Part shown: piece after piece, positions 26,501-61,912 of the stretch | Layout: every line of letters begins with the position of its first letter | How positions within the stretch are numbered: the stretch's first letter is position 1 | Source of the DNA: Diplonema papillatum | Taxonomy: Eukaryota | Direction of reading: 5' to 3' | DNA: 64,000 nucleotides | Assembly: GCA_030068145.1 (NCBI GenBank) | Contig: JAPJBO010000158.1 | Location: 245,818-309,817, forward strand | Position numbers and translations under genes: made by a program | Notes under the pieces: generated by a model | The model's database searches: none | The model's input: the letters and a program-made list of their open reading frames with translations, nothing else | Told to the model about the DNA's origin: nothing

Positions 26501-29500
26501 GCCCCGCGTTGAGGCACGTCAGGGAGTGGTCCCCGAAGCGGTCGGCCTCGGCCGCCCCGCAGAGCCGGCACTCGCGTGCCTGCGGCGCCAGCTGCATCCC
26601 CAGCCGCAACCTCACTGCCACTGTGAGCTCGGCTGGGGACATCCAGAGGTCGTCCGGGGCGTTGTGCGCCCCGTAGAGCCACGTGGAGGCGTGCTTGGCG
26701 GCACAGCTGCGGATCCTCGCCTGGCCCCTGACCCCGACGAGCGGATCCCTCAGCAGGCCCGCCTGCCTGGCCGCGGAGATCTTCCCACTCCATTCCTTCT
26801 GCTTGCGTGGCGCGCCCGCTGCCCCTGCTTGCAGTGAGTCTCTGACCTCGGTCAGGACTTCCGGGTAGAGTGCAAGTCTGGGGCAGGCGAGCGACGCCGC
26901 GCATACGGAGTCCTGTGTGGGTGTGATTTGAAGTGGCCCCCCCCCGGGGGCTCTCGTCAGCAGCGGCAGACCCTTGATGCCCTCCAAGGTCGCCGCCACC
27001 CCTGCCACGGCCGCCGAGTCGGCGCACGAGTGCATCCCTAGGCCGCCCAGCCTCAGGGGCAGCGAGGCCTGCACCCACTCGGTGTCCCCCAGCTCGGCCC
27101 CGAGGGTCCTCGCCAGGGCTCGCCGCATGAAGGTATCCACCCTCCCGTAGTCCGCCACCGGGCCCGTGGCCCGCATGAGGGAGACCACGCAGACGAACCC
27201 CGCGCACGAGTTCAACAGGGCCAGGGCCGTGTGTGGGTCCGGGAGGCTGGCAATGGCTCTTGCCCGCTTTTCGGCCCTGTCCAGGACCTTCGCCACCGCC
27301 TCCCGTACCGCGGCCTCGGACCCACAGGGTGCCCCCAGAATCTCCCAGCTCTCCAGTGAACACCGGGTCATGGCCGCGAACTCGTCCGGCACCCGTTCGC
27401 CCGCGAGACAGACCACCTCGCTCTTCCCTCTATTGAGGTCCATCCCCACCGCGCCCCCCTCCAGCTCGAATGCGGCGAGCCACACGATCAGGTGCTCCCA
27501 TAGCCCCGCCGCGGCTCCATCATCCAGGTAGAACGCTCGCGCGTCCAGCTGGGACACCCGCAACGGGTCCGGTTGTGCTGGGGGGGCCGGCTCCTGTACC
27601 GGGGGGGCTGGTTCCTGTATCGGGGGGGCTGGTACCTGTACCGGGGGGGCTGGGCCCGCCCCTGCCCCGTCCACCTCCATGTCCTGTTCCTGTGGTTGTT
27701 GTTGTTGTTGTTGTTGTTGTTGGGGCTGGGCCGGGGCCAGGGCCCCCTGCGGAATATCATCGGCCCCCAAGGGTGGCAGCCGCTCGGCCAGGGACAAGTC
27801 CACTCTCCGCAGGACCTTCTCCAACACGAGACAGAAGAACAACGGCCCGAGTGGGTCCCCCTGTTGCACTCCGCACTCGGACCAGACCACTTCCTCCCCG
27901 AAGGAAAGCCGTGACCTGCGCCCGTACGCCGCTATCGCGTATGGCAGGAGGCCTGGGGCGCTCTCGGCCACTGCCTGCAAGATGGCCTCCCTGCTCACCT
28001 TGTTAAAGGCGTTCTGCAGGTCCACCTTCAGGATCCCCCGCCCTTGGCCGTCGCGCCGGTACGCCTCTCCCACGCACCGCATCGCGCAGACCATGGCGTC
28101 GGCGCCGGACTTCATCCCGACCCCGGTCTGGCCGCACCTCTCCAGGATGGGCTTGACCGCCTGCACCACGGACTTGTCCCTGGCCAAGATCTTGGCCGCC
28201 ATCCTCCTCAGGACCTCTCCACAGGCGATGGGCCGGAGACCCCCGTCCTTCTTCTCGAGGGCCACTAGCCTGGCCCCAAACCCGTGCGGCCGGGCCTCGT
28301 CCGGGAGGCTCCCGGTGGCGATCCGCGCGATCACCGCCACCAGAGGGGCCCTTATCGGCGAGCCCGGGCTCACCAGGTCCAGCAGGTGCTGCGCCGACAG
28401 CCCTGACGGCCCTGGTGCCGTCCCTCGGGGGAGCGCCCTCAGCGTCTTAATGACGATCCCCCAAGAGACGTCGATCTCCGCGTTCGCCTGTGGTGGTATT
28501 GGGGGGAGGGGGGGTTCTGGCGCCTGTGGGTGTTTTTCCCGCATGACCCCCAGTGTCTCCTCGTTCACTGGGGCCACCTTCGCCGCCGAGAGCGCGGCCA
28601 CCGCCTTCCCGAACCATCGGGCCTTCGTCCTGCGAATGACCTGCTGGACGGTCTTCGCATCCAGCTGGTCGGCGTCCTCCACGTCTGTCGCCAGCCCGAC
28701 GAACCGCCCGATCTGGTTGTCGTCCTCGTCCATCACGAGGAACCGGACCGGGGGCACGCCCGCCTGCCTCCTGCCTGCCGCCACTTCCTGCGCCTCCGTC
28801 CAGAGCTCGCCGAACCTGCCGTGCGCCCAAAGGTGGCAGCGACTCCTCAGGGCGGCCGCCACCTTCTTCCTCCCCCCTCTGCGCGGTTTGAAGAGGACGA
28901 GGGTGGCGAAGGAGTGTAACCGGAGCCACCCGGTTACGCTCCCCGTGGCCGCCAGCTGTAGCGCCTTCGCCAGCTGCGCGGCCACCACCAGCTGCGCATC
29001 CAGCGGGATCCGCTCCAGCTTGGGCACAGCCAGCGCGCTGATCTCCGCGAACGAGAACGGCATCTCCTCCTCGAACGCTGCGTGGGCCGGCCCCGCCGCT
29101 GGGTCGGCTGCCTGGCCTGCCGCCGGGGCCCGGCGTCGGTGGTTGTTGGCCGGTGGTGCCGCCGGGGCTGCGTCCGGGCGGTACGCCCGCGACAGGGGGC
29201 ACATGTTCCTGTGCCTGCCCTGGACTCCCGGCAGGCGCCCGCAGAGGCAGACCGGCGGCGGGGCGGCTGGGGCCGGTGGGGGGGGCGCGGCGGGCCCCGG
29301 GTGCGGTTCGACGCATCCATCCACGGTGAGGTCGTCCCCACCGCGCCCCAGCGATCTCGTTGCGGACCTGTGTGTGTGTCCCCCCTTCCCCTTCCTGTTG
29401 GGTGTCCTTTCTGGGGGTGCCGCGCTCGCCGACGAGCGGCCGAGCGCGCTCAGCCGCCTGAGGTCTTCGGCCGCTTGGCGGGGTTCTCGGCACCAGGGCC

Positions 29501-31100
29501 CGGCCCCTGGGCCTCCCCCATTGGCGCGTCGCTCCCCGGGTCCTTGTGCTCGCCGGGTTGGGGGGGGTCGGCCTCTGGCCGCTGCGACCCCATGAGGACG
29601 TCGCAGCCCGGGGGTCCGGGGGGATCTTTTTTGATGGCAAGGGCGGCGAGGGCGAGGGCGAGGCGGCGCTCCTTGTCCTCTTTCATTTGGGCGAGGGCCT
29701 CTGTGGCCTCCGCCGCCTCCAAGAAGGCGACGTCCCTCCTCCCTTCCCTCTCCCCGACCTGCAGTTGCAGGGATCTGCGAGGCCACTGCCTCGCCTCTTC
29801 GAGGGTGATTCCCTCTCGCTCCCTCCCCTCGCGCGTCATCTGCGCCTTCTGGGCCTCGTACTCCTGGGAGAGTACGAGAGCCCCTGCCGCGTGCGCCCTC
29901 AGCCCAGCCTCCATGTACCGGACGCACGTCCCGTACATGTTCCCCCAGGCCCGGGCCGCCACCTCTGCCCTGTGCATGGCGGAGTGGTGCTCCACCTCTC
30001 CCCGGGTGGCGACCACCGCCCCGCAGCCCGGGCAGACCTCGCCCGCGAAGCCCAGCTCCGTAAGCGCGAGCGGCTCGGACTCGCGCATGGCTGCCCACAG
30101 GGCGGCGGCTTCCGTGAGGGCTGCCCACCGGATGGCGGCCCTCAGCTCCTCCTCCTTGAGCAGGAGCGCCTCCCCGGGGTCGAAGGGGCTGTCCCACCTC
30201 CACTCCGGAGCAGGCTCCGCCGGGGGGGAGGCCCGCTCCGTGGGTGCGGCGGGCGGCTCCGGGAGCTGGCGAGAGAAGGCCCACGGGGCTACAGGGGCGG
30301 CCTGGAACCGGGCGGCGACCGGGGAGGACCCGGTGGCTTGGGGGGGGGAGAAAGTGGAAGACACACCGTCGACTGGCTCCCACCTTCGCGGCAGACGACC
30401 CATCAGCCGTGGGTCCTGCGGGTGCGCCGCCTCGCACGCTGCGTCGTCGCAGCCTTCGATGTCGCACGCAGCGACGTGGCGGTGCCGGCACCCGGCCCGA
30501 CGGCACCCCAAGGCCGTCAGGGCCTCGATGCAGGCCGGTGTGGGCACGTGCCTGAAGCGGCACGGCTGGCGGCTGCATCCGCCGGGCGAGTTGAACTCGC
30601 GGCAGAGGGGGCGGTCCCCCCTGCGGTCCTCCTGCGGCGGGGGCGCTCTCCCGCCGGCCTTCTGCGGTGCAGCCGTCGCTGCCCTTCTCGATGCGGCCTC
30701 TCCGGGCCCCTGTCGTTGCTGTGCGGTCGTCACCGCCTTCGACGTCGGCTTCGATGCCGTCGGCTGCGCGGCTTCCGCCTTCCGCCCCTCGCTGACATGC
30801 GGGGGCTTGCGGCCAGGCGATCCGACTGTTTTCCAGCCGGATCGGGTCATCCTGGGGGGCGCGCGTTGTGTGTGTGTGCGTGGTTCTTTGTGTGTGCGTG
30901 CGGGTGTGTGCGCGTGTTCTTTTTTTTTCGTGCGTGTGTGCGGGGTAGTAGGTGGTGGGGGTAGGTGGTGTGTGAGTTGTTAGCGCGCGTGTGCGAGCTA
31001 GGGGTGAACACAAAGTGCGGGGCTTGCGTCCTACACCGTGCGCCTCTCTAGCTTGCTTCCTTTGTTACCAACTTCCTTTGTTTTCTCCTCCAGGACAACA
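23593..31100 (-). mobile_element. Full-length non-LTR retrotransposon with RT and C-terminal CCHC zinc finger plus restriction-like endonuclease (R2/CRE/NeSL-type architecture) and a poly(A) tail, inserted in thiolase intron 2
   Basis: There is a single 1950-aa ORF at 31013-25161 on the minus strand. RT motifs are present: TAPGPSGLSAQHL, LEKKDGGLRPIACGEV, KVDLQNAFNKV, QQGDPLGPLFFCLVL, YLDDGAAAG, GMDLNRGKSE. Downstream of RT are CRLCGAAEADRFGDHSLTC and RTRAHTALRNEVGALAREAL, then KRVDVAYTRGEKRRLIDVAITFP, which resembles the R2 CCHC plus PD-(D/E)xK region. The 3' UTR is about 1.5 kb and ends in T22 on the + strand at 23593-23614. The 5' boundary is approximate. Confidence 0.8.
24340..24580. repeat. 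Tandem repeat, about 60 bp unit x4, inside the LINE 3' UTR
   Basis: TGCCTGCGGGTTTGTTTC.GGTGCTGAGGCGTTTTTCGGGGGGGGGAGCTCTCGTTTTTGGGGGGG is repeated. This explains the repetitive pseudo-ORFs on both strands. Confidence 0.7.
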
Positions 31101-35399: not shown

Positions 35400-35575
35400 G
35401 GCAGCGGGCTTTGAGGGAAAGGTCAGCGCGGTAGCGATGACCAGGAGAACACATACAGATGGGTGGGGAGAGGCCTTGGGACTAAGGCGTGACTACCCCC
35501 GTCCCTGTCCCTCCCAGGGCGCCACCCCGAATCTAGCCTGGCTCCACCACGGTGAAGGCCCACACCTGCGGTTTC
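35400..35575 (+). repeat. SINE-like family E copy (about 170 bp, ends in a CT-rich tail)
   Basis: GAAAGGTCAGCGCGGTAGCGATGACCAGGAGAACACATACAG..GGTGGG...CCCCGTCCCTGTCCCTCCCAGGG.GCCACCCCGAATCTAGCCTGG. Homologous to 38444-39030 and 47950-48123. Confidence 0.65.
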
Positions 35576-38443: not shown

Positions 38444-39030
38444 TGTCTCTCTCTCTCTCGTAAGGTACGTGGTAGGGATGCCAACAAGAACACATTCTGG
38501 TGGGTGGAGACGCCCTGCCTGTACCACCGCCCCTGTCCCTCCCAGGGAGCCACCCCGAATCTCGCCTGGCCCACCTGACGGTGGGGCCACACCCTTTGAG
38601 TTGTTTTACGTGTTCTCTTTCTCTCACTCTCGCTCTTGGAAAGTCAGCGCGATAGCAATGACAGCGAGAACACAAAATGACAAGACGGTGGGACCGGGCC
38701 CTGCGACTGCTAAGGCGTGACAAACCCGCCCCTGTCCCTCCCAGGGAGCCACCCCGAATCGGTGGGCCACACCCTTTGAGTTGTTTTACGTGTTCTCTTT
38801 CTCTCACTCTCGCTCTTGGAAAGTCAGCGCGATAGCGATGACAACGAGAACACAAAAATGACAAGAGGGTGGGACCGGGCCCTGCGACTGGTAAGGCGTG
38901 ACAAACCCGCCCCTGTCCCTCCCAGGGAGCCACCCCCGGATCTCTAGCCTGGCCCACCTGACGGTGGGAGCCAACCTGACGGTGGAGGCCCACACCCTAT
39001 GACTTGTTTTGATGTGTTCTCTCTCTCTAT
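38444..39030 (+). repeat. Array of three SINE-like family E units, each with a CT-rich tail, immediately 3' of the SYS1 stop codon
   Basis: Three consecutive units ...TTGTTTTACGTGTTCTCTTTCTCTCACTCTCGCTCTTGGAAAGTCAGCGCGATAGC.ATGACA.CGAGAACAC..., begun by (CT)7 at 38444. Confidence 0.7.
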
Positions 39031-47699: not shown

Positions 47700-47949
47700 C
47701 CGCGTACAACTCGCTGAAGCTGAGCGCAGGAGATCAAGCAGCGGAGAAAGAAGAGGGCCCGCGCGTTACAAGGCGGCGATCCTCCGCGAGACGAGCTCAC
47801 CCGCCGGCCAGAGCGCCCGCTGCAGCACCAACTCCGGTGCCGCCACTCACTGTACGCCCGCCGTAGCAGCACGAAGAGAAGTGAGGAGACCAGAAACTCC
47901 CGGAGAGATGGTCCCTGCACTCCAACTCCTCTCTCTCTCTCTCTCTCGG
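47700..47949 (+). mobile_element. 3' terminal fragment of the (CT)n-tailed LINE family
   Basis: ...AAGAAGAGGGCCCGCGCGTTACAAGGCGGCGATCCTCCGCGAGACGAGCT.ACCCGCCGGCCAGAGCGCCCGCTGCAGCACCAACTCCGGTGC...GAAGAGAAGTGAGGAGACC.GAAACTCCCGGAGAGATGGTCCCTGCACTCCAACTC(CT)n is homologous to 50575-50825. Confidence 0.7.
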
Positions 47950-48123
47950 GAAAGGTCAACGCAGTAGCGGTGACCACGAGAACACATACAGGTGGGTGGG
48001 GAGAGGCCCTGGGACTGCTAAGGCGTGACTAACCCCGTCCCTGTCCCTCCCAGGGAGCCACCCCGGAACTAGCCTAGCCCACCTGACGGTGGGGGCCCAC
48101 CTGACGGTGGAGGCTCACACCCT
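47950..48123 (+). repeat. SINE-like family E copy, directly following a LINE (CT) tail and preceding the long (CT)n tract
   Basis: GGGAAAGGTCAACGCAGTAGCGGTGACCACGAGAACACATACAGGTGGGTGGGGAGAGGCCCTGGGACTGCTAAGGCGTGAC...TTGTTTTGATGTGTT(CT)n. Confidence 0.7.
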
Positions 48124-50825
<2,702 letters not shown>

Positions 50826-51160
50826 TGATAATTGTCACAGGGTTGGTGAAATGAAAGCGAGAATGTGGGGTAAGCCCTGGTTATTAGATTCACGGTTAAA
50901 CGAAGCTAGCGCACAAGGTTTGCCTGATCTCGCACCTACTTTCCGATACCAAATAGATGCTCTATTCAAACTCGGAAAAGGTCGCGTTGGCAGAAACGGT
51001 GAAGATGATAATTGTCACAGGGTTGGTGAAATGAAAGCGAGAATGTGGAATAAAAATCCCTGGATGTGAAACTCAAAGAGCTGAGATCCCGCTGCCTCCG
51101 GGTCTCGCAAAGAATAGCGCTATCAGGAGCGCAAATACAAAACTTCCGAGGTAAACATCC

Positions 51161-53875
51161 TCATGCAACGCAGAACGGGGTCCGGGGCGGCTGGATGCCC
51201 TGCCTGTATGGGTCCCGCGTCCAGACGTCTGCCAGTTGCTCAGCAGTCGGGACCCATACAGTCTCGAGGACACACTGGTGTTCCTCCAAGACGTCGCGGA
51301 CCTGGCACAGGATGAAGTTCCCGAGCTGGGTCTTCGACTTCCAGTTCCTCAAGCAGTTGACGGCGGGCAAGTTGTCGACGAAGATCCTGATCGTCGACAG
51401 CGGAGAGCGAGAAGCCGCGTACGCAATCGCGAACTTCGCCGCCGTCAGCTCAGCGAAGAAGATGTGCTGCGGGACATCCCTCCACGGGCCCCACATCGCC
51501 ATGGAACCCACCAGCCAGGCCCATCCCTGCATGCTGGCGTCGGACCACGCCTCCACGAGGGTGTCCCGTTGCTTCGAGTCGAAAACGACCCACCGGTTGC
51601 CCGACAGACGCCGTCTCACTCCCGCAAGGAACGGAAAAACGTCGTCGCTCACGCGGACCAGCGACTCCCAGCCCAGGGAACCGGTCAGGACCTGGTGCGC
51701 CAGGGTTCCCATCCACGCAAGCACCGGGCTCACCCTGCAGAGCGGCGTGCCCCACACCGTCCACGCCCAAATAGCGGTCCCGACGACCTTCCAAACGCCA
51801 CGCAAAGTCATCCGCGTCGAATCGACCGAGCAAAAGAGGAGGTGCGCCTTCCTCGCCCACTCTTGCTTCAGCCGGTATCTCTTCGCCGCGAGGTCGAACT
51901 CGACTCCCAAGACAACCGGCGTCGAGCTGGGCTCGAGGACGGACTTCTCGTCGTTGACCGTCATGCACACCTTGCGGGCGCGTCGCAGGACTCGGTCGCG
52001 CACAGCGCGAAGCGCGTCCGGACAGTCACCGACGAGGGCCCAGTCGTCGTACCAGACTATCCTATCGTCCCCGGCGGTTTCCGTGATGACCAGCGCAGAG
52101 TCCTGTGCGATCACGGGCGAGAACGACCAGCCCATCGTAAGCCGGCGCCACCGATACAGAGCCACGCCCCCGTCGGGCCTCCTGGTCCGGAGCCCGAAGA
52201 AAGCCGACGTCGACCGTCCCACTGGGAACTGGAAGAAGTAGGACTTCAGGTCGACGACGACTGCGTGCGACTTCGACATCATCTTGGCGATGACCTCGTC
52301 GACACGCAAGAGGCTGAACTTCGGCGGGGGCTCCATCAGCTCGTTCAGCGGGCGGCCATCGACGATGGCACGGGAGTGGTGCTCCCCCTTCTCGACAGCG
52401 AACGCCGGCAGTACGCACTTCAGCGGCTCCGAGCGGGGAACGCGTTCCACAAAGCCGACGCCCTCCAGCGTCACCGCATGGTGCGCAAACGCGTCGCTCT
52501 TCCGACCCGGCACGAGCGGCGTGCCCAGTAGCTTCCGTCGGAAAGCGTGTCCGTCCGTGAGGAGGTCGAGCAGGCTGTGCAACCGGGCTCCGGGCCTGGC
52601 GAGATCCCGGAGCGCACGGAGGTCGATCGGAGGTACCGCCGTGACGTCAAGCGGCTTCGCCGACCTCGGAGCACCGACCGCCGGGACGAGACCTCTGGTT
52701 TCCGGCGGAAGGTATCCGAGGGGGACTGTGGTGGGAGGGTCGTAAAAGTGTGGGTGAAGCCGTAGAAAAAGCCTCCTTCCCCTGAGCAACCTGGATCTCC
52801 GCGATTTCAGGCCCACGACCTGCCGAGGCAAAGAGCCGGCGTCGGGCATGGGGTGTTTCTGTCGCGTCGGGAAACGGCTGTCAAAGAGAGGCGGGTTGGC
52901 TAGTCCCGGGAGGCGCCCTGGAGCACCCGCTGTGCCGACTCCAGGGTCTTCAGGGTGTCGACGGCCGGGCCCTCGACGTAGTACCGGAAGACACTCTTCT
53001 TCCGGTGGCCCGTGACTGCCATCGCGTCGTCCTCGCTCATCGTCTCCCGCAACGCGGTGGCCGCGCCCCTCCGGAAGCTCTTCGTCGAGTAGGACTAGCA
53101 CTTGGTGGTACTCGAGGTCCGGGAACAGCAGGGAGTTCGGACCCGAGATCCCGTCGAGGTGCCGCAGGACGATGCGGGACAGAGGAGCGGCGACGAGTCC
53201 GTACCGCCCCTTGTCTGCCTGGCGCGACTTCTCCCTCCAAATGTCGACGAGGATGGTGGGGGACGGGCCGCGGCGGGACACCGTGAGGTCCCTCTTCCGC
53301 AGGCTCAGAACGGTTTCCGAGCGAGACGCCAGCGTCCACATCAAAGCCTGGGCGGCGGCCGTCGGGAGGTCCTTCTCCGCCTCTGCGGCCACCGCACGCA
53401 TGACGGCCTCCTTCGACGCCGCCACCCCTCGCTTCACCGGCAGCGCCACGGCCATTCTTCGGGCGCCCGTCAACAGCCGTTGCAACCACGGAAGGCGACG
53501 TTGCTGCACGGGCACCCCTTTCGACTCGAGGTGGGCTTGCAGCAGACCGACGTACCTGCCGACCGTCGAGCCGGAAACCTGACGCACGGTGATGAGCCAA
53601 GCCCCCCAGGCAGCGATCTGGTCTGCCAGGCTCTTCGGCGGTGACGGCACCGAGTCCAGAAACAGCTGGAAGCTCGTTAGCACCGTCCGGGTGGCGGTGG
53701 AGTGATGGCGACCGCGCCCGAGCTGCGCGATGTACTGCGCCATCTGGAGGGGGTCGTCGGAGTTCACCCCCGTCTGTCGTGCGGTCTTGACCAAGGCCTT
53801 CGCCTGATCGCTCGCGGTGCCGCTCTCCCACAGACGAGTGTCGAGGAGCCGCCTCGCTCTCGCCGGGTCCATCAA
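51161..53875 (-). CDS. pol ORF of the YR retroelement: tyrosine-recombinase N-terminal half, then RT, then RNase H
   Basis: YR-like: ...SGSTVGRYVGLLQAHL...AAQALMWTLASRSETVLSLRKRDLTVS..ILVDIWREKSRQADKGRYGL...LLFPDL, which shows the Cre-like box I Arg and the K-beta region. RT: VVVDLKSYFFQFPV, YRWRRLTMGWSFSPVIAQ, VWYDDWALVG. RNase H: EAWSDASMQGWAW, FFAELTAAKFAI, VDNLPAVNCL, VWVPTAEQLADVWTR. The YR C-terminal half (HxxR...Y) was not found in frame, so it may be degenerate or frameshifted. Confidence 0.7.
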   Translation of the reverse strand: MMDPARARRLLDTRLWESGTASDQAKALVKTARQTGVNSDDPLQMAQYIAQLGRGRHHSTATRTVLTSFQLFLDSVPSPPKSLADQIAAWGAWLITVRQVSGSTVGRYVGLLQAHLESKGVPVQQRRLPWLQRLLTGARRMAVALPVKRGVAASKEAVMRAVAAEAEKDLPTAAAQALMWTLASRSETVLSLRKRDLTVSRRGPSPTILVDIWREKSRQADKGRYGLVAAPLSRIVLRHLDGISGPNSLLFPDLEYHQVLVLLDEELPEGRGHRVAGDDERGRRDGSHGPPEEECLPVLRRGPGRRHPEDPGVGTAGAPGRLPGLANPPLFDSRFPTRQKHPMPDAGSLPRQVVGLKSRRSRLLRGRRLFLRLHPHFYDPPTTVPLGYLPPETRGLVPAVGAPRSAKPLDVTAVPPIDLRALRDLARPGARLHSLLDLLTDGHAFRRKLLGTPLVPGRKSDAFAHHAVTLEGVGFVERVPRSEPLKCVLPAFAVEKGEHHSRAIVDGRPLNELMEPPPKFSLLRVDEVIAKMMSKSHAVVVDLKSYFFQFPVGRSTSAFFGLRTRRPDGGVALYRWRRLTMGWSFSPVIAQDSALVITETAGDDRIVWYDDWALVGDCPDALRAVRDRVLRRARKVCMTVNDEKSVLEPSSTPVVLGVEFDLAAKRYRLKQEWARKAHLLFCSVDSTRMTLRGVWKVVGTAIWAWTVWGTPLCRVSPVLAWMGTLAHQVLTGSLGWESLVRVSDDVFPFLAGVRRRLSGNRWVVFDSKQRDTLVEAWSDASMQGWAWLVGSMAMWGPWRDVPQHIFFAELTAAKFAIAYAASRSPLSTIRIFVDNLPAVNCLRNWKSKTQLGNFILCQVRDVLEEHQCVLETVWVPTAEQLADVWTRDPYRQGIQPPRTPFCVA

Positions 53876-53926
53876 GGTCTTCGGCCTGGGGGGACCAAAT
53901 CCCAGCCGACTGTTCCACGCCCAACT

Positions 53927-54700
53927 TCATTTGCGGCCCCGGCCGCCCTTGCCCCCCTTTCCCGACGGGGAGCGGGAGCGGGCCGAAGCCCCGGAAGAGC
54001 CCCGACTGGGGGCGCTCCGTTGGCCGCGCGGTTCGTGGGCGTTCCAGCCTCCGCCCCACCCTCGGGCGTGGCTGTTGGCCGCCTTCTCCGCTTTCTCCCA
54101 GTCGGGGTCCTGCTTGCGGCCCCGCATGGTGCGGGCGAACTCGCTCCCCCATCGGGGTCCTCGCCGCGCTCTCCCGTCCAGCTCACGGAGGCGGGTGCCC
54201 ACTTCGAATACGGCGGCCTCGAGGTCGCCCTTCAGCAACTTGCCCAACAGGGCAAGGAGGCTCTTCGCCTCGTGTCCCATGCTGCCTCTCAGCAGCTCTT
54301 CGTGCTCGACCTTCAGTCGAGCCACGAGAAGTTCACGGGCCACCGGGCCCGTCTGACCGAAGTCCAGCCACTTCTTTGGCTGGAGCACGAGCTCGTCGAG
54401 CTCGTCGAGGCCTTCGGCCCCGTCGTCGTCGCTCCCCTCCGATGGGGGCGACACGACGGTCGCCCTCGCCGGCCTCCTCGCCTGGCCTGCCTCGAGCCCG
54501 GCGACTCTCGAGTTGAGCCGCCGGAGCTCCTTTAACACGGCCGCCAGGCCGGGCTCTACCCCCTCGGTGTGTTCTTCTTCTTCTTCTTTCTCCTCTCTTT
54601 CCTCCTCTTCCTCATCTCGTTGCCTTTTCTTGCATGCTTTTTGATGCCCGGTAAGACCTTTCGCATCGAAGGTTCCTCCACAGTGTTCGCAATCAGGCAT
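53927..54700 (-). CDS. gag-like ORF1 of the YR retroelement with C2HC zinc knuckle
   Basis: MPDCEHCGGTFDAKGLTGHQKAC (CX2C...HX4C) is followed by an acidic, coiled-coil-like region. It ends 50 nt upstream of the pol ORF. Confidence 0.55.
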   Translation of the reverse strand: MPDCEHCGGTFDAKGLTGHQKACKKRQRDEEEEEREEKEEEEEHTEGVEPGLAAVLKELRRLNSRVAGLEAGQARRPARATVVSPPSEGSDDDGAEGLDELDELVLQPKKWLDFGQTGPVARELLVARLKVEHEELLRGSMGHEAKSLLALLGKLLKGDLEAAVFEVGTRLRELDGRARRGPRWGSEFARTMRGRKQDPDWEKAEKAANSHARGWGGGWNAHEPRGQRSAPSRGSSGASARSRSPSGKGGKGGRGRK

Positions 54701-54880
54701 TGGGAAGAGGGGGTGTGAGTTGTGTATGGAATAAAAAGAGAATGGAAATAAAATGAAAGCGAGAATGTGGGGTAAGCCCTGGTTATTAGATTCACGGTTA
54801 AACGAAGCTAGCGCACAATGTTTGCCTGATCTCGCACCTACTTTCCGATACCAAATAGATGCTCTATTCAAACTCTCTCT

Positions 54881-55600
54881 CAAGCATCGACGCCATCACC
54901 ATCATTCAGCAAGATGGAGACAGTCTGCGCCAGGAGACCGCTGAAGTGATGCCGTACCTGAGTATCCGCAGGACATACCCTTCGTACAGTCAGGCTGAAC
55001 TTTCCCATCAAGACGCTGGCCCCCGCCATAGGCTGCGTAGACGAGAAGAAGAGGGCACGCGGCGCAGCAAGACGACGAACTCCCGCGAGCCGGACTTGCC
55101 TGCCCGGCGGATACCACGGGCTGGGATACCACGGTGGGATACCACGGGCTGGGATACCACGGTGGGATACCACGGGCTGGGATACCACGGGCTGGGATAC
55201 CACGGGCTGGGGTACCACGGGTGGGATACCACGGGTGGGATACCACGGGCTGGGATACCACGGGCTGGGATACCACGGGTGGGATACCACGGGCTGGGAT
55301 ACCGCAGGCTGGGATACCACGGGTGGGATACCACGTGCTGGGATACCAAGGGCTGGGATACCACGGGTGGATACCACGGGCTGGGATACCACGGGCTGGG
55401 ATACCACGGGCTGGGATACCACGGGCTGGGATACCACCATGGGCTGTACCCACGGCGCCGTCGCCCACCGTGCCGAAGCCGTTCGCCGCTACACGCCTAC
55501 GACGGGACGACTTGCGACCAATTGTAGTACGTGAGGAAGTGAGAGACCGGCACCATCCTGAAGAGATGGTCACTGCACTCTCTCTCTTTCTCATTCCTTT
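54881..55600 (+). mobile_element. Diverged 3' fragment of the (CT)n-tailed LINE family containing an expanded 10 bp minisatellite
   Basis: ...TTTCCCATCAAGACGCTGGCCCCCGCCATAGGCTGCGTAGACGAGAAGAAGAGGGCACGCGGCGC... aligns to 50530-50640 of the longer copy. The tail ...GAAGAGATGGTCACTGCACTCTCTCTCTTTCTC lies at 55560-55590. Confidence 0.6.
55105..55440. repeat. 10 bp minisatellite (GGGATACCAC / GGGCTGGGATACCAC)n, about 33 units
   Basis: Seen in sequence. It produces the repetitive ORFs 54859-55527 (+) and 54880-55594 (-). Confidence 0.9.
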
Positions 55601-55785: not shown

Positions 55786-58257
55786 ATGCGGTTCGTCGGC
55801 CGACTTGTCAACTGTTCGCTGCGCGACACGGATGACGAAATCACGGTGATTCGGAAGCGGGTCGTGCTCCTGACGCTGTTGCTCACGGCGGTTATCTGCG
55901 TGACCGCGTCGCTTTTGCAGATGAACGTGCTGCTGCAGTTCCCGGGATGCGCGCCCCTCGTCGTGGGTTTCATGGCCGCCGGGTGCTTCGTGTACATACT
56001 GCTGACGCGGTCGGGGACTCAGGCGGAAGTGCAAGCCATTCTGATCGGGCTGAACGTCGGAATCCTCCTGCTCGATTGGAACGCGGAGGTGAACTACGGC
56101 GTCCGGTTCTGGCCGATTTTCGTGGTTGTGGCCGACTTGCAAATAATATGCAGACTCGACTGGCGCATGATTGTCGGCAGCACGGTAGGGGTCGTCTGTT
56201 GGATCCTCGTCACGTCGTTGGAGGACTTCACCCGATTCGGACTGTGGGACGTGTCGGCTGACGACAGCTTGTACGACGCGAGAAGAGACGCGGTGCTTAG
56301 TTGCTCGAAGCCTCCTTGCTCAAGCAGTGTGCTCTCGTCGGTGTATACGTGCTTCAGTTCCGTGCTCGTCATTGTGGTCAACCTCCTCGTCACGAAGTCG
56401 CTCGCTGAAAAAGTCAGCGAAAGCGAGGCCATCGTGAAGAACGCAGGGCGCAAGGCAGACTTGGTCGCCCGAGCGCTGGGCATGTTCGACATGGAGCTCG
56501 CGCGGGACCACCTCGAGACCACCCGCGCCTACTCCCTCCCAACGCAGCTGCGCGTCGCGTTGACGAGAATCGTGAGCATCGTGCTGGCGATCAAGCCGTT
56601 CATCCCTTCGGCCGTCATCGAAGAGTGCATGGGCGCGTCTCGCATCGACTTCCACCAACCGAGACTGGAGGACATGCCGGCGACCTGGACGTCGACGTGC
56701 ACCTCGTCCCTTGGGCCGCCTGCTACGCACGACACGCCGGAGGCGTGCATCGTCTTCACCGACATCTTGGCCTCGACGAAAACGTGGGAAGCGGTCCCAG
56801 ACGCGATGCGAAAGGCGTTGAGGCTGCACAACCACGCGATACGCGGCGCGATAGAGGAGTGGTTCGGCTACGAGGTGAAGACGATAGGCGATTCGTTCAT
56901 GGTCGCGTTCGACGACCTGTCGTCCGGCATCAACTTCGGACTCACAGTGCAAGAAGACCTGTTCACTCTGGAGTGGCCGGCGAGCTTGCTAGGAGTCGCG
57001 CAGTGTGCGAGGAGCATCGACGGAGACTGGAATGGGCTGCGGGTCCGCGTTGGTGTCAACTTCGGCGAAGTTGTTGCGGAGCAGAACCCGTTGACGCAGC
57101 GGTTCGACTACTTCGGGCACACCGTCAACAAAGCCGCCAGGCTCGAGGCCAACGGCATTCCGGGGTTCGTTTGCCTGCCCAGCGACCTGTTCGCGGGTGT
57201 TCTGCCGCACTGCCTCAAACCGCACTACGTGGCCCGCAAGCAGTGCCTGACCTTCAAGGGCGTCCAGGGCGTGACGGAAGTCGCGTCGCTGCAGTCGACG
57301 GCCCTGTCGAAGAGGCGGCCTGCCGACGCTCTACCGGAATCCCTGCGAATGCCGTCGGGCAACGTCGCGGGGCCCCCCGAAGCGGCCACGCAGCCGCCGC
57401 CGCCGCCGCCACCGCCGCCGCCGCAGCAACACGTGAATCCGTTCCTCACCGCGTTGGACCCCGCGAAAAAGAAGTTGTCGGCGGTTTCGTGGCCGAGTGC
57501 GTTGGGCGACGCGGAAGTTGGCTCGGCGAGGAACGGCACCGCCGCGGCGCAGCCGGGGCAGGCCAGGATCCTGGGCAGCCTTAGTGCGGTCAGCTTCGCG
57601 CCGGAAGCAGAAGACGGAGCGGATACCTCAAGCCACGACGGTGCGCCGACGCCGGCCGAGCAACAGCCGCGCGGGGCGCGCCGCCCCATGCACCCGCCCG
57701 AACGGCTCAGCCTGGTGCTGGCCGACGACGGCAGCCCCGCGGCGGCGGCGGCGGCGAAAAGCGAGGCGGCGGCGCCCCACGGCGCCGCGCTGCCGGCCGA
57801 CCTGCAGTCGACGCCGCTCCGCGCCAAGGGAACCGGAGGAAGCCCGGCCGCGGCGGTGTCCAGCCATTTTGGCGTCGTTTCGCCGCTCACGACCCTCAGC
57901 TCGTCCGAGAGAGACACCGGCTACAACTTCGCGCAGCAGATCATCCAGCAGATGCAGAGGAGGGCCTCTCCCGCGGAATCAAGCTCCAATTCGTGCTCGT
58001 CGGGATCGGAGGCCAGCGTGAGCGTCATCCGCAAGCGTTTAAACATCAACCCGCTTCGCACCATAGCGCTTAGTCGCAAAGGGCTGATGCAGCACAGCTT
58101 CAGCACGTCGTTCCTCCTCCGAAAGAGCGCCGGTAGCTTCCGCTGCCAAGGCGAGGCTAAAGACGCGGTGTCTACTGCTGCGAGAAGTGACATGGTTTGG
58201 CTTCGCCCCCTTTTTGTCGCCCCAGCGACATGCGATACAGTGTATTGTGAACGCTAA
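55786..58257 (+). CDS. Class III adenylyl/guanylyl cyclase: N-terminal polytopic membrane region, catalytic cyclase-homology domain (CHD), low-complexity Ala/Pro/Ser-rich tail
   Basis: Hydrophobic segments span residues about 20-210. CHD: ACIVFTDILASTKTWEAVPDAMRKALRLHNHAIRGAIEEWFGYEVKTIGDSFMVAF...LRVRVGVNFGEVVAEQNP..QRFDYFGHTVNKAARLEANGIPGFVCLPSD...TFKGVQGV carries the canonical F.DI..(S/F)T...KTIGD..M...RiGi..G.v..GvvG....Y...G..VN.AaR.E motifs. The antisense ORFs 56320-56952 and 57225-57917 are artefacts. Confidence 0.85.
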   Translation: MRFVGRLVNCSLRDTDDEITVIRKRVVLLTLLLTAVICVTASLLQMNVLLQFPGCAPLVVGFMAAGCFVYILLTRSGTQAEVQAILIGLNVGILLLDWNAEVNYGVRFWPIFVVVADLQIICRLDWRMIVGSTVGVVCWILVTSLEDFTRFGLWDVSADDSLYDARRDAVLSCSKPPCSSSVLSSVYTCFSSVLVIVVNLLVTKSLAEKVSESEAIVKNAGRKADLVARALGMFDMELARDHLETTRAYSLPTQLRVALTRIVSIVLAIKPFIPSAVIEECMGASRIDFHQPRLEDMPATWTSTCTSSLGPPATHDTPEACIVFTDILASTKTWEAVPDAMRKALRLHNHAIRGAIEEWFGYEVKTIGDSFMVAFDDLSSGINFGLTVQEDLFTLEWPASLLGVAQCARSIDGDWNGLRVRVGVNFGEVVAEQNPLTQRFDYFGHTVNKAARLEANGIPGFVCLPSDLFAGVLPHCLKPHYVARKQCLTFKGVQGVTEVASLQSTALSKRRPADALPESLRMPSGNVAGPPEAATQPPPPPPPPPPQQHVNPFLTALDPAKKKLSAVSWPSALGDAEVGSARNGTAAAQPGQARILGSLSAVSFAPEAEDGADTSSHDGAPTPAEQQPRGARRPMHPPERLSLVLADDGSPAAAAAAKSEAAAPHGAALPADLQSTPLRAKGTGGSPAAAVSSHFGVVSPLTTLSSSERDTGYNFAQQIIQQMQRRASPAESSSNSCSSGSEASVSVIRKRLNINPLRTIALSRKGLMQHSFSTSFLLRKSAGSFRCQGEAKDAVSTAARSDMVWLRPLFVAPATCDTVYCER

Positions 58258-58391
58258 AAAAGACGTAGACACGCGCGTTTCAGTGGTTCATCCGAACTCC
58301 CAACCTGAAAACGAGACAGGGTAAAAACAAGCGGAGAACGAACAACTGGCACGCACAAACAAAACGAAGCGCCTAAAAGTGTCCAACTGAA

Positions 58392-61300
58392 GAACACCCA
58401 GTGAGGAACACCCAGTGAGGAACACCCAGTGAGGAACACCAAGTGAGGAACACCCAGTGAGGAACACCCAGTGAGGAACACCCAGTGAGGAACACCCAGT
58501 GAGGAACACCCAGTGAGGAACACCCAGTGAGGAACACCCAGTGAGGAACACCCAGTGAGGAACACCCAGTGAGGAACACCCAGTGAGGAACACCCAGTGA
58601 GGAACACCCAGTGAGGAACACCCAGTGAGGAACACCCAGTGAGGAACACCCAGTGAGGAACACCCAGTGAGGAACACCCAGTGAGGAACACCCAGTGAGG
58701 AACACCCAGTGAGGAACACCCAGTGAGGAACACCCAGTGAGGAACACCCAGTGAGGAACACCCAGTGAGGAACACCCAGTGAGGAACACCCAGTGAGGAA
58801 CACCCAGTGAGGAACACCAAGTGAGGAACACCCAGTGAGGAACACCCAGTGAGGAACACCCAGTGAGGAACACCCAGTGAGGAACACCCAGTGAGGAACA
58901 CCCAGTGAGGAACACCAAGTGAGGAACACCCAGTGAGGAACACCAAGTGAGGAACACCCAGTGAGGAACACCCAGTGAGGAACACCCAGTGAGGAACACC
59001 CAGTGAGGAACACCCAGTGAGGAACACCCAGTGAGGAACACCCAGTGAGGAACACCCAGTGAGGAACACCCAGTGAGGAACACCCAGTGAGGAACACCCA
59101 GTGAGGAACACCCAGTGAGGAACACCCAGTGAGGAACACCCAGTGAGGAACACCCAGTGAGGAACACCCAGTGAGGAACACCCAGTGAGGAACACCCAGT
59201 GAGGAACACCCAGTGAGGAACACCCAGTGAGGAACACCCAGTGAGGAACACCCAGTGAGGAACACCCAGTGAGGAACACCCAGTGAGGAACACCCAGTGA
59301 GGAACACCCAGTGAGGAACACCCAGTGAGGAACACCCAGTGAGGAACACCCAGTGAGGAACACCCAGTGAGGAACACCCAGTGAGGAACACCCAGTGAGG
59401 AACACCCAGTGAGGAACACCCAGTGAGGAACACCCAGTGAGGAACACCCAGTGAGGAACACCCAGTGAGGAACACCCAGTGAGGAACACCCAGTGAGGAA
59501 CACCCAGTGAGGAACACCCAGTGAGGAACACCCAGTGAGGAACACCCAGTGAGGAACACCAAGTGAGGAACACCCAGTGAGGAACACCAAGTGAGGAACA
59601 CCCAGTGAGGAACACCCAGTGAGGAACACCCAGTGAGGAACACCCAGTGAGGAACACCCAGTGAGGAACACCCAGTGAGGAACACCCAGTGAGGAACACC
59701 CAGTGAGGAACACCCAGTGAGGAACACCCAGTGAGGAACACCCAGTGAGGAACACCCAGTGAGGAACACCCAGTGAGGAACACCCAGTGAGGAACACCCA
59801 GTGAGGAACACCCAGTGAGGAACACCCAGTGAGGAACACCCAGTGAGGAACACCAAGTGAGGAACACCCAGTGAGGAACACCCAGTGAGGAACACCCAGT
59901 GAGGAACACCAAGTGAGGAACACCCAGTGAGGAACACCCAGTGAGGAACACCCAGTGAGGAACACCCAGTGAGGAACACCCAGTGAGGAACACCCAGTGA
60001 GGAACACCCAGTGAGGAACACCCAGTGAGGAACACCCAGTGAGGAACACCCAGTGAGGAACACCCAGTGAGGAACACCCAGTGAGGAACACCCAGTGAGG
60101 AACACCCAGTGAGGAACACCCAGTGAGGAACACCCAGTGAGGAACACCCAGTGAGGAACACCCAGTGAGGAACACCCAGTGAGGAACACCCAGTGAGGAA
60201 CACCCAGTGAGGAACACCCAGTGAGGAACACCCAGTGAGGAACACCCAGTGAGGAACACCCAGTGAGGAACACCCAGTGAGGAACACCCAGTGAGGAACA
60301 CCCAGTGAGGAACACCCAGTGAGGAACACCCAGTGAGGAACACCCAGTGAGGAACACCCAGTGAGGAACACCCAGTGAGGAACACCCAGTGAGGAACACC
60401 CAGTGAGGAACACCCAGTGAGGAACACCCAGTGAGGAACACCCAGTGAGGAACACCCAGTGAGGAACACCCAGTGAGGAACACCCAGTGAGGAACACCCA
60501 GTGAGGAACACCCAGTGAGGAACACCCAGTGAGGAACACCCAGTGAGGAACACCCAGTGAGGAACACCCAGTGAGGAACACCCAGTGAGGAACACCCAGT
60601 GAGGAACACCCAGTGAGGAACACCCAGTGAGGAACACCCAGTGAGGAACACCCAGTGAGGAACACCCAGTGAGGAACACCCAGTGAGGAACACCCAGTGA
60701 GGAACACCCAGTGAGGAACACCCAGTGAGGAACACCCAGTGAGGAACACCCAGTGAGGAACACCCAGTGAGGAACACCCAGTGAGGAACACCCAGTGAGG
60801 AACACCCAGTGAGGAACACCCAGTGAGGAACACCCAGTGAGGAACACCCAGTGAGGAACACCCAGTGAGGAACACCCAGTGAGGAACACCCAGTGAGGAA
60901 CACCCAGTGAGGAACACCCAGTGAGGAACACCCAGTGAGGAACACCCAGTGAGGAACACCCAGTGAGGAACACCCAGTGAGGAACACCCAGTGAGGAACA
61001 CCCAGTGAGGAACACCCAGTGAGGAACACCCAGTGAGGAACACCCAGTGAGGAACACCCAGTGAGGAACACCCAGTGAGGAACACCCAGTGAGGAACACC
61101 AAGTGAGGAACACCCAGTGAGGAACACCCAGTGAGGAACACCCAGTGAGGAACACCCAGTGAGGAACACCCAGTGAGGAACACCCAGTGAGGAACACCCA
61201 GTGAGGAACACCCAGTGAGGAACACCCAGTGAGGAACACCCAGTGAGGAACACCCAGTGAGGAACACCCAGTGAGGAACACCCAGTGAGGAACACCCAGT

Positions 61301-61912
61301 GAGGAACACCCAGTGAGGAACACCCAGTGAGGAACACCCAGTGAGGAACACCCAGTGAGGAACACCCAGTGAGGAACACCCAGTGAGGAACACCCAGTGA
61401 GGAACACCCAGTGAGGAACACCCAGTGAGGAACACCCAGTGAGGAACACCCAGTGAGGAACACCCAGTGAGGAACACCAAGTGAGGAACACCCAGTGAGG
61501 AACACCCAGTGAGGAACACCCAGTGAGGAACACCCAGTGAGGAACACCCAGTGAGGAACACCAAGTGAGGAACACCCAGTGAGGAACACCCAGTGAGGAA
61601 CACCCAGTGAGGAACACCCAGTGAGGAACACCCAGTGAGGAACACCCAGTGAGGAACACCCAGTGAGGAACACCCAGTGAGGAACACCCAGTGAGGAACA
61701 CCCAGTGAGGAACACCCAGTGAGGAACACCAAGTGAGGAACACCCAGTGAGGAACACCCAGTGAGGAACACCCAGTGAGGAACACCCAGTGAGGAACACC
61801 CAGTGAGGAACACCCAGTGAGGAACACCCAGTGAGGAACACCCAGTGAGGAACACCAAGTGAGGAACACCCAGTGAGGAACACCCAGTGAGGAACACCAA
61901 GTGAAAAACACC
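58392..61912. repeat. Satellite DNA: 14 bp unit CACCCAGTGAGGAA x about 250, with sporadic CACCAAGTGAGGAA variants
   Basis: Perfect periodicity over 3.5 kb. The three about 1200-aa minus-strand ORFs here are pure repeat artefacts. No spacers, so not CRISPR-like. Confidence 0.97.

Follow-up and report, generated by a model that had tools for sequence, protein, structure and literature searches.

The window analysed here is a 64,000-nt stretch of the Diplonema papillatum genome (contig JAPJBO010000158.1 of assembly GCA_030068145.1). At 50826-54883 it carries, on the minus strand, a retroelement encoding a tyrosine recombinase (YR), a reverse transcriptase (RT) and an RNase H (RH). Read from 54875 downwards, the sense order is A1, gag-like open reading frame (ORF), YR, RT, RNase H and B1-A2-B2, in which A and B are split direct repeats. 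The true 3' end lies further left, at 48510, and the element is 4082 nt (approximately 4.08 kb) long after taking out a nested long interspersed nuclear element (LINE). From these features and the analyses described below, we conclude that the element is very probably a copy of a multi-copy VIPER-like (order DIRS) YR retrotransposon family of D. papillatum. It is an ordinary mobile element of the VIPER/TATE type in a new host lineage.

Organization of the element

The features of the element and of the sequences that interrupt or border it are as follows.

54751-54875, minus strand: A1, the 5' split direct repeat, 125 nt, 124/125 identical to A2, starting GAGTTTGAAT
54700-53927, minus strand: gag-like ORF, 257 aa from its ATG, stop TGA
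53096-53872, minus strand: YR residues 1-259, comprising the N-terminal domain and the first half of the catalytic domain (100% in tblastn)
53095, minus strand: site of a 26-nt deletion, by which SAAKRTLGK (residues 260-268 of the P0007-type YR) is lost and the frame shifted
52900-53094, minus strand: C-terminal half of the YR, shifted to +1 against the frame of the N-terminal half, 64 aa and then TAG as the stop
51161-52890, minus strand: RT/RNase H coding region, with the RT core at approximately 51896-52444 (YDD box) and the RNase H at approximately 51191-51568
50974-51048, minus strand: B1, the internal copy of the 75-nt repeat B, 75/75 identical to the reconstituted B2
50849-50973, minus strand: A2, the 3' copy of repeat A
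50827-50868, minus strand: first 42 nt of B2, sharing its initial 20 nt with the end of A2 and stopping at the LINE insertion site GATAA
48510-48542, minus strand: last 33 nt of B2, the true 3' terminus of the element (48510-48547 with the duplicated GATAA)
48548-50826, plus strand: nested 5'-truncated non-LTR (long terminal repeat) retrotransposon (LINE) inside B2, foreign to the YR element
48143-48509: (CT)186/(GA)186 microsatellite on the 3' side of the element, 95% pure (Tandem Repeats Finder), the apparent integration target

The ORFs, profile matches and tblastn alignments bear out the original prediction of a YR retroelement with the order gag-YR-RT-RH. That prediction had not recognised the strand, and it had placed the 3' boundary at 50826, approximately 2.3 kb short of the true end, at the edge of the LINE that lies inside B2.

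In the gag-like protein, a zinc knuckle (CX2CX11HX3C) at the N-terminus is followed by an acidic/helical middle part and a tail rich in Gly, Arg and Lys. It gave a weak Pfam match to zf-C2HC_2 (E = 0.008), and the sole homologue found was the N-terminal part of DIPPA_26518 (P0007). Downstream, a 904-codon ORF (53875-51161, minus strand) comprises the N-terminal part of the YR (residues approximately 1-260) followed by the RT and the RNase H-like domain (residues approximately 400-900). All seven close protein matches of this pol ORF are hypothetical proteins of D. papillatum (DIPPA_) with 77-99% identity, and they sit in clusters of 2-34 member sequences; the family is thus a diplonemid one with several copies. 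In word-indexed searches, neither pol nor the YR matched proteins of any other organism, so that the euglenozoan host suspected beforehand can now be named. Scans of metagenomes with P0012 and with the B1/A2 junction gave no match. The order gag-YR is seen in P0007, and YR-RT/RH in the window copy. In a second D. papillatum family (P0014/P0161), the YR also lies upstream of the RT, within a single ORF.

Split direct repeats and the nested LINE

The predicted arrangement A1...B1A2B2, with an internal copy, was recovered in full, and B1 directly abuts A2 with the junction TTTTCC/GAGTTTG. The predicted length of 150 bp for the terminal repeat was too high, repeat A being 125 nt long. A 20-mer from the terminal repeat occurs three times in the window, where 0.01 occurrences are expected by chance. 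The last 20 nt of repeat A, CCACATTCTCGCTTTCATTT, are also the first 20 nt of repeat B. The repeat search also gave a partial internal copy at 51006-51053, and the distal part of B2 was recognised by a 41-nt exact match to 50971-51011.

The 3' end was established by removing the LINE. This insertion duplicated 5 bp of its target, GATAA (48543-48547 and 50827-50831), and excision in silico of the LINE together with one GATAA yields a B2 that equals B1 over 75/75 nt, which places the 3' end of the YR element at 48510. The 33 nt between B1 and A2 had been considered as LINE-derived or as a true spacer; both readings were rejected, these nucleotides being the end of repeat B, the second copy of which was displaced by the LINE. 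The LINE matches RVT_1 only from profile position 110 on and is therefore truncated within its RT; it carries a (CT)n tail and, at the C-terminus, a CX2CX7HX4C (CCHC) motif. Further 3' ends of the same kind of LINE family, with a (CT)n tail instead of poly(A), lie at 47738-47947 and 54994-55089.

The near-identity of the repeats, with a single mismatch in the 125 nt of A1/A2 and none in the 75 nt of B1/B2, shows that the YR element inserted recently; the LINE insertion is younger still. Gag and RT/RH have retained open reading frames in the window copy.

Tyrosine recombinase and its lesion

The YR gene begins with an ATG at 53872, 18 codons past the gag stop and in the same frame. Its N-terminal half holds Arg-I (ASRSE) and the beta-hairpin Lys (REKSRQADKGRY). 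In tblastn, residues 1-259 align at 53872-53096 and residues 269-332 at 53094-52903, with 1 nt between the two segments. The second segment, SYSTKSFRRGAATALRETMSEDDAMAVTGHRKKSVFRYYVEGP...ASRD* in three-frame translation, is intact, matches at 100%, and contains the motifs KSFRRG (Arg-II, with a Lys at the His-II position), GH (His-III) and RYY (nucleophile Tyr). DIPPA_26518 runs uninterrupted through the same region (...EYHQVL-SAAKRTLGK-SYSTKSFRRG...), and its YR ends at its own stop (ASRD).

The 26-nt deletion shifts the frame, by which the N-terminal half of the YR is fused by chance in frame to RT/RH. Because this deletion splits the YR gene, the window copy is recombinase-defective and cannot supply its own YR; it could move only with recombinase given in trans by an intact sibling. 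The suspicion of a defective recombinase was therefore justified, but the C-terminal half, described as not visible, is present in another frame. Likewise, the YR N-terminal half does lie in frame with and upstream of RT-RNase H, as predicted for this copy, but as a consequence of the lesion and not as the design of the family.

We consider it very improbable that the in-frame YR(N)-RT-RH polyprotein is instead functional, as a single pol ORF. The 904-codon ORF is indeed uninterrupted, and single-ORF relatives exist in the P0014 family of the same genome and in some Bodo saltans TATE copies. The fusion, however, skips the half of the YR that bears Arg-II, His-III and the nucleophilic Tyr, which is still encoded intact in the +1 frame. 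P0007, the closest intact relative, reads through with nine extra residues and ends at ASRD, and in the gene models of six further copies RT/RH has a start of its own. Restoring the 26 nt places RT/RH in the -1 frame relative to the YR, overlapping the 3' end of the latter, and intact copies would have this arrangement. Frameshifting by -1 at a canonical slippery heptamer was considered and rejected, as the YR/RT overlap of the window copy contains none.

The identity of the recombinase was assessed with profiles and alignments. Homology to the YR region of the second D. papillatum family, P0161/P0014, was detected with phmmer (E = 4e-10), and one member of this family gave a weak Pfam Phage_integrase match just upstream of its RT. 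Hidden Markov models (HMMs) of YRs were built, one per group, from the transcribed YR alignment of Ribeiro et al. 2019 (PMC6681497, supplement 18). The reconstructed window YR scored 36.2 bits against the TATE YR profile and 34.6 bits against the all-YR profile (positions 3-156), and at most 13 bits against the DIRS, PAT, Ngaro, Crypton, prokaryotic, Flp and 'uncharacterised' YR profiles. The VIPER-proper profile gave 4.8 bits; the sister Diplonema family reached 29.5 bits. In hhalign, a Diplonema YR profile matched TATE with 98% probability (E = 1.8e-13, 129 columns) and pooled non-VIPER YRs with 95% probability (E = 2e-8) in the Arg-II/His/Tyr region.

A MAFFT alignment with the YRs of TATE, VIPER and Bodo showed R184 (Arg-I), S274, H298 (His-III) and Y307 to be invariant, and K216 to be nearly so. 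R276 (Arg-II) aligns with the Arg of TATE and Bodo; VIPER proper has Lys there and Arg one position on. The His-II position is Lys in the window YR and is not His in TATE either.

The VIPER-like YR profile also revealed well over 100 Trypanosoma cruzi VIPER recombinase ORFs that are misnamed in the databases, for example as 'trans-sialidase', 'SH3 domain protein' or 'MCAK kinesin' (P0175-P0291, T. cruzi and T. theileri). They match this profile with E values of 1e-13 to 1e-23.

Reverse transcriptase and RNase H

Pfam recognises the RT (RVT_1, E = 3e-8). In the Protein Data Bank (PDB), a profile made from 23 relatives matched the Ty3 RT (4ol8) with E = 1.4e-18, and also the RTs of human immunodeficiency virus and murine leukaemia virus. 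The RNase H-like domain contains the invariant residues D779/E809/D834/D883 (ORF numbering), and 2 of the 23 relatives gave weak matches to RVT_3 (RNase H). The RT/RH region is 99% identical to DIPPA_05988 (P0002). An exhaustive HMMER search yielded 1499 relatives, the nearest with approximately 30% identity over RT-RH; the named ones are from Diplonema ambulator, Flectonema neradi, the prokinetoplastid Papus ankaliazontas and the second D. papillatum family.

RT trees were constructed by neighbour-joining (NJ) with the published RT alignment (Ribeiro et al. 2019, supplement 16). The window RT and 13 relatives from other diplonemids, Papus and further assemblies form a clade with 88-99% NJ bootstrap. 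In the main tree this diplonemid-type clade joins kinetoplastid VIPER+TATE+Bodo at 93%, and the same grouping was obtained at 87-98% in four variants (Poisson distance, a stricter column filter, TATE removed, and a Ribeiro-anchored alignment). The clade is sister to the kinetoplastid group and not nested within it. Grouping of the RT with DIRS, Ngaro, PAT, Gypsy, caulimoviruses or retroviruses was found in 0 of 500 bootstrap replicates in the five analyses.

Several distinct families of the diplonemid-type clade (P0016, P0018, P0019, P0021, P0045 and P0058) share contigs of 0.4-2.7 Mb in eukaryotic assemblies of the ENA, which suggests another genome rich in elements of this clade.

The similarity to Ty3 raises the alternative of a Ty3/Gypsy-like LTR retrotransposon, in which the 125-nt repeats would be LTRs and the 'recombinase' a divergent non-enzymatic domain. 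We regard this as extremely improbable. The Ty3 RT is the best PDB match of the RT profile, but the RT does not group with Gypsy in the trees; such a grouping, together with TG...CA ends, had been named beforehand as evidence against a YR element. Direct terminal repeats are present, and the GA-repeat flanks could mask a short target duplication; yet the repeats begin with GAG and end with TTT/TCC, lacking the TG...CA ends of LTRs, and the extra internal B1 copy adjoining A2 is unlike LTRs. The element ORFs contain no Pfam protease, and neither a protease nor an rve integrase domain was found in any frame-0 ORF, in which Pfam finds only RVT_1. The YR catalytic residues, on the other hand, are present, and the YR profile matches are significant.

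Relationship to VIPER, TATE and other YR retrotransposons

Between split direct repeats of the pattern A1...B1A2B2, VIPER and TATE encode a gag-like protein and then, in ORFs that overlap, the YR and RT/RH (PMC6681497, PMC12278014). The architecture of the window element matches this in the gag-like ORF, the order of the genes and the repeats; the overlap of YR and RT/RH would be matched with the 26 nt restored.

TATE, a VIPER-like element (order DIRS) of Leishmania (Viannia), Crithidia, Leptomonas and Bodo saltans, likewise has a gag-like ORF, a YR and an overlapping RT/RH, although in the window element the overlap appears only after restoring the 26 nt. It has the same A1...B1-A2-B2 split direct repeats, its YR is the best profile match of the window YR (36 bits; hhalign 98%), and the loss of His-II is shared, with PS-IRKG in TATE and KS-FRRG in the window YR. 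Both elements are found beside a simple repeat; TATE is located at telomeric hexamers. The two differ in host, kinetoplastid for TATE and diplonemid for the window element, and in size: the repeats of L. braziliensis TATE measure 381 nt (A) and 294 nt (B), as compared with 125 and 75 nt here, and the window element is much shorter. The TATE RT is far more derived and has IDN where the window RT has YDD; in the NJ trees the latter branches as sister to the kinetoplastid VIPER+TATE+Bodo group and not within it. The TATE gag is without a clear CH-box, whereas the window gag has a zinc knuckle.

VIPER, from T. cruzi and other trypanosomatids, agrees with the window element in the order of its three ORFs and in its type of split direct repeats (173 nt for A and 219 nt for B in T. 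cruzi). Its gag also has a Cys/His zinc motif, with the spacing CX2CX4HX4C as opposed to CX2CX11HX3C here, and its RT motifs are similar (DLKxxFFQ, RLxMGxxxSPxIxQ). The VIPER RT has IDN instead of YDD, the host class differs, and the match of the window YR to the VIPER-proper profile is weak.

Ngaro and PAT share with the window element the split direct repeats A1...B1A2B2 and the YR that replaces a DDE integrase, but neither its RT nor its YR groups with either of them. In Ngaro, DIRS1 and PAT the YR lies downstream of RT/RH, whereas it lies upstream in the window element. DIRS1 of Dictyostelium also combines a YR with RT/RH, and the profile similarity of the RT core to DIRS-like elements is as high as that to VIPER-like elements. 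DIRS1 has inverted terminal repeats and an internal complementary region, with the order gag-RT/RH-(methyltransferase)-YR. None of these DIRS1-type traits (inverted termini, internal complementary region, YR after RT) is seen in the window element.

That the element is canonically DIRS-like, Ngaro-like or PAT-like instead of VIPER-like is improbable. Such a reading draws on the RT-core profile scores, in which DIRS-like elements are highest or tied, on the YDD box, which is as in DIRS and Ngaro, and on the split direct repeats common to Ngaro and PAT. It is contradicted by the gene order gag-YR-RT/RH, unlike the YR-last order given for DIRS1 and Ngaro, and by the YR, which scores 36 bits against TATE and at most 13 against DIRS, Ngaro and PAT. 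The RT never joined any of these three groups in the bootstrap replicates. Inverted repeats at the element ends and an internal complementary region were not found in the repeat search, all repeats being direct. The original prediction, which had put the element closer to VIPER than to canonical DIRS or Ngaro, is upheld by the YR profiles and the NJ trees of the RT.

Several observations nevertheless speak against the VIPER-like assignment or reduce its strength. The placement of the RT comes from distance trees alone, so that long-branch attraction is possible. The HMM scores of the RT core are highest for DIRS-like elements, and hhalign of the same core (DIRS-like 158, VIPER-like 151, Gypsy 149) does not discriminate. 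In the position of the YDD of the window RT, (I/V)DN is found in VIPER/TATE and in the majority of the new relatives. For the recombinase, neither Pfam Phage_integrase nor a PDB sequence search gave a match to the reconstructed YR. A failure of the N-terminal part to match YR profiles had been named beforehand as evidence against a YR element; taken literally, this is what the Pfam search returned, whereas the YR profiles from the published alignment do match. An AlphaFold2 prediction of P0007, which lacks 12 residues around Arg-I, from a 28-sequence alignment was poor (mean predicted local distance difference test score 59.7, below 50 in the catalytic core), and Foldseek of this model against the PDB returned helical-repeat noise only. 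The termini, the lack of a visible target duplication and the (GA)n target are known from one genomic copy, and because both flanks are GA/CT repeats, a short target duplication may be hidden in them.

The negative Pfam and PDB results appear to reflect a failure of sensitivity, given the homology to P0161, the scores against the TATE and all-YR profiles, the hhalign matches and the conserved catalytic columns.

Target site and proposed replication cycle

In the sense direction, the 5' flank reads ...GCTTGAGAGA/GAGTTTG... and the 3' flank ...TTTTCC/GAGAGAG(GA)n. The YR element sits in a (GA)n/(CT)n tract that forms the tail of a repeat resembling a short interspersed nuclear element (SINE), here called repeat X (47948-48143). 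On the 5' side of the element, only TCTCTC (54876-54881) remains of this tract. The triplet GAG is common to the start of repeat A and the target, and would suit a short crossover core.

The published split-direct-repeat model for Ngaro, PAT, VIPER and TATE suggests how the element may replicate. An RNA would be transcribed from A1 through B2 and bound by the gag-like protein, and RT/RNase H would copy it into cDNA. The internal B1-A2 junction may then serve as the template that brings the cDNA ends into a closed circle, in which the joint of B2 and A1 would be the same as that of B1 and A2 (TTTTCC/GAGTTTG). The YR, and not a DDE integrase, would recombine this putative circle into the chromosome, here into the (GA)n tract and possibly via the shared GAG. 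A preference for such tracts as targets would be compatible with this scheme.

A further-reaching proposal is that diplonemids and prokinetoplastids carry a distinct and still-active sister lineage of VIPER/TATE that has kept the ancestral YxDD, and whose recombinase inserts the circular cDNA specifically in (GA)n tracts, for instance in the CT-rich tails of resident LINE- and SINE-like elements, via a GAG core shared by the B/A junction and the target. We consider this doubtful. If it were true, VIPER-like elements would predate the split between diplonemids and kinetoplastids, and a YR retrotransposon with a simple target site would be at hand.

Repeat X is approximately 200 nt long and has other copies at 35415-35563 and 38523-39025. 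The copies are 81-91% identical, partly in tandem at 38.5-39.0 kb, and end in ...TTGACTTGTTTTGATGTGTT(CT)n. The first approximately 25 nt of X (GGGAAAGGTCAACGCAGTAGCGGTGA) resemble the reverse complement of the 3' end of the YR element (GGAAAAGGTCGCGTTGGCAGAAACGGTGA), but not above chance in shuffles. Accordingly, the idea that 47948-47975 is left over from the 3' terminus of another YR element was rejected: these nucleotides begin the multi-copy repeat X, and their alignment to repeat B scored 30, as compared with 21.6 +/- 4.1 in shuffles.

Occurrence in diplonemids

In PMC6681497 and PMC12278014, VIPER-like YR retrotransposons are described solely from Kinetoplastida. The D. papillatum genome paper reports more than 60 ORFs resembling TATE, MULE and Helitron proteins, with the TATE-like ones listed under DNA transposons (PMC10161547), and we found no paper in the searchable literature that describes YR retrotransposons in diplonemids. 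The near-intact diplonemid copy with defined termini presented here extends the VIPER-like group across the Euglenozoa and would move its origin back. Ribeiro et al. suspected that VIPER/TATE-like contigs from marine 'bacterial' bins stem from unsequenced free-living relatives (PMC6681497). Diplonemids are the obvious candidate source, and the window element probably explains these 'bacterial' VIPER/TATE-like contigs of marine metagenomes. The element is mechanistically unsurprising and leaves the knowledge of how such elements work unchanged, but, at approximately 4.1 kb and with repeats of 125 and 75 nt, it is a compact reference with which the repeat-rich genome of Diplonema can be annotated.

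Genomic surroundings

The nearest apparent host gene is an 823-aa ORF at 55786-58257 on the plus strand, opposite to the YR element. Pfam recognises in it the catalytic domain of class III adenylate/guanylate cyclases (Guanylate_cyc, E = 6e-23), and hydrophobic segments are predicted at the N-terminus. Just past this ORF begins a 3.5-kb satellite (58388-61912) of 252 copies of the 14-nt unit TGAGGAACACCCAG with 99% identity, which accounts for the extreme AT skew (0.58-0.65) found there. A second tandem array, at 55109-55437 and just downstream of a LINE-like 3' fragment, comprises 22.6 copies of the 15-nt unit GGATACCACGGGCTG with 91% identity. Elsewhere in the window, the 6 kb at 24001-30000 have a G+C content of 0.68-0.71, as compared with approximately 0.52-0.60 in the rest.

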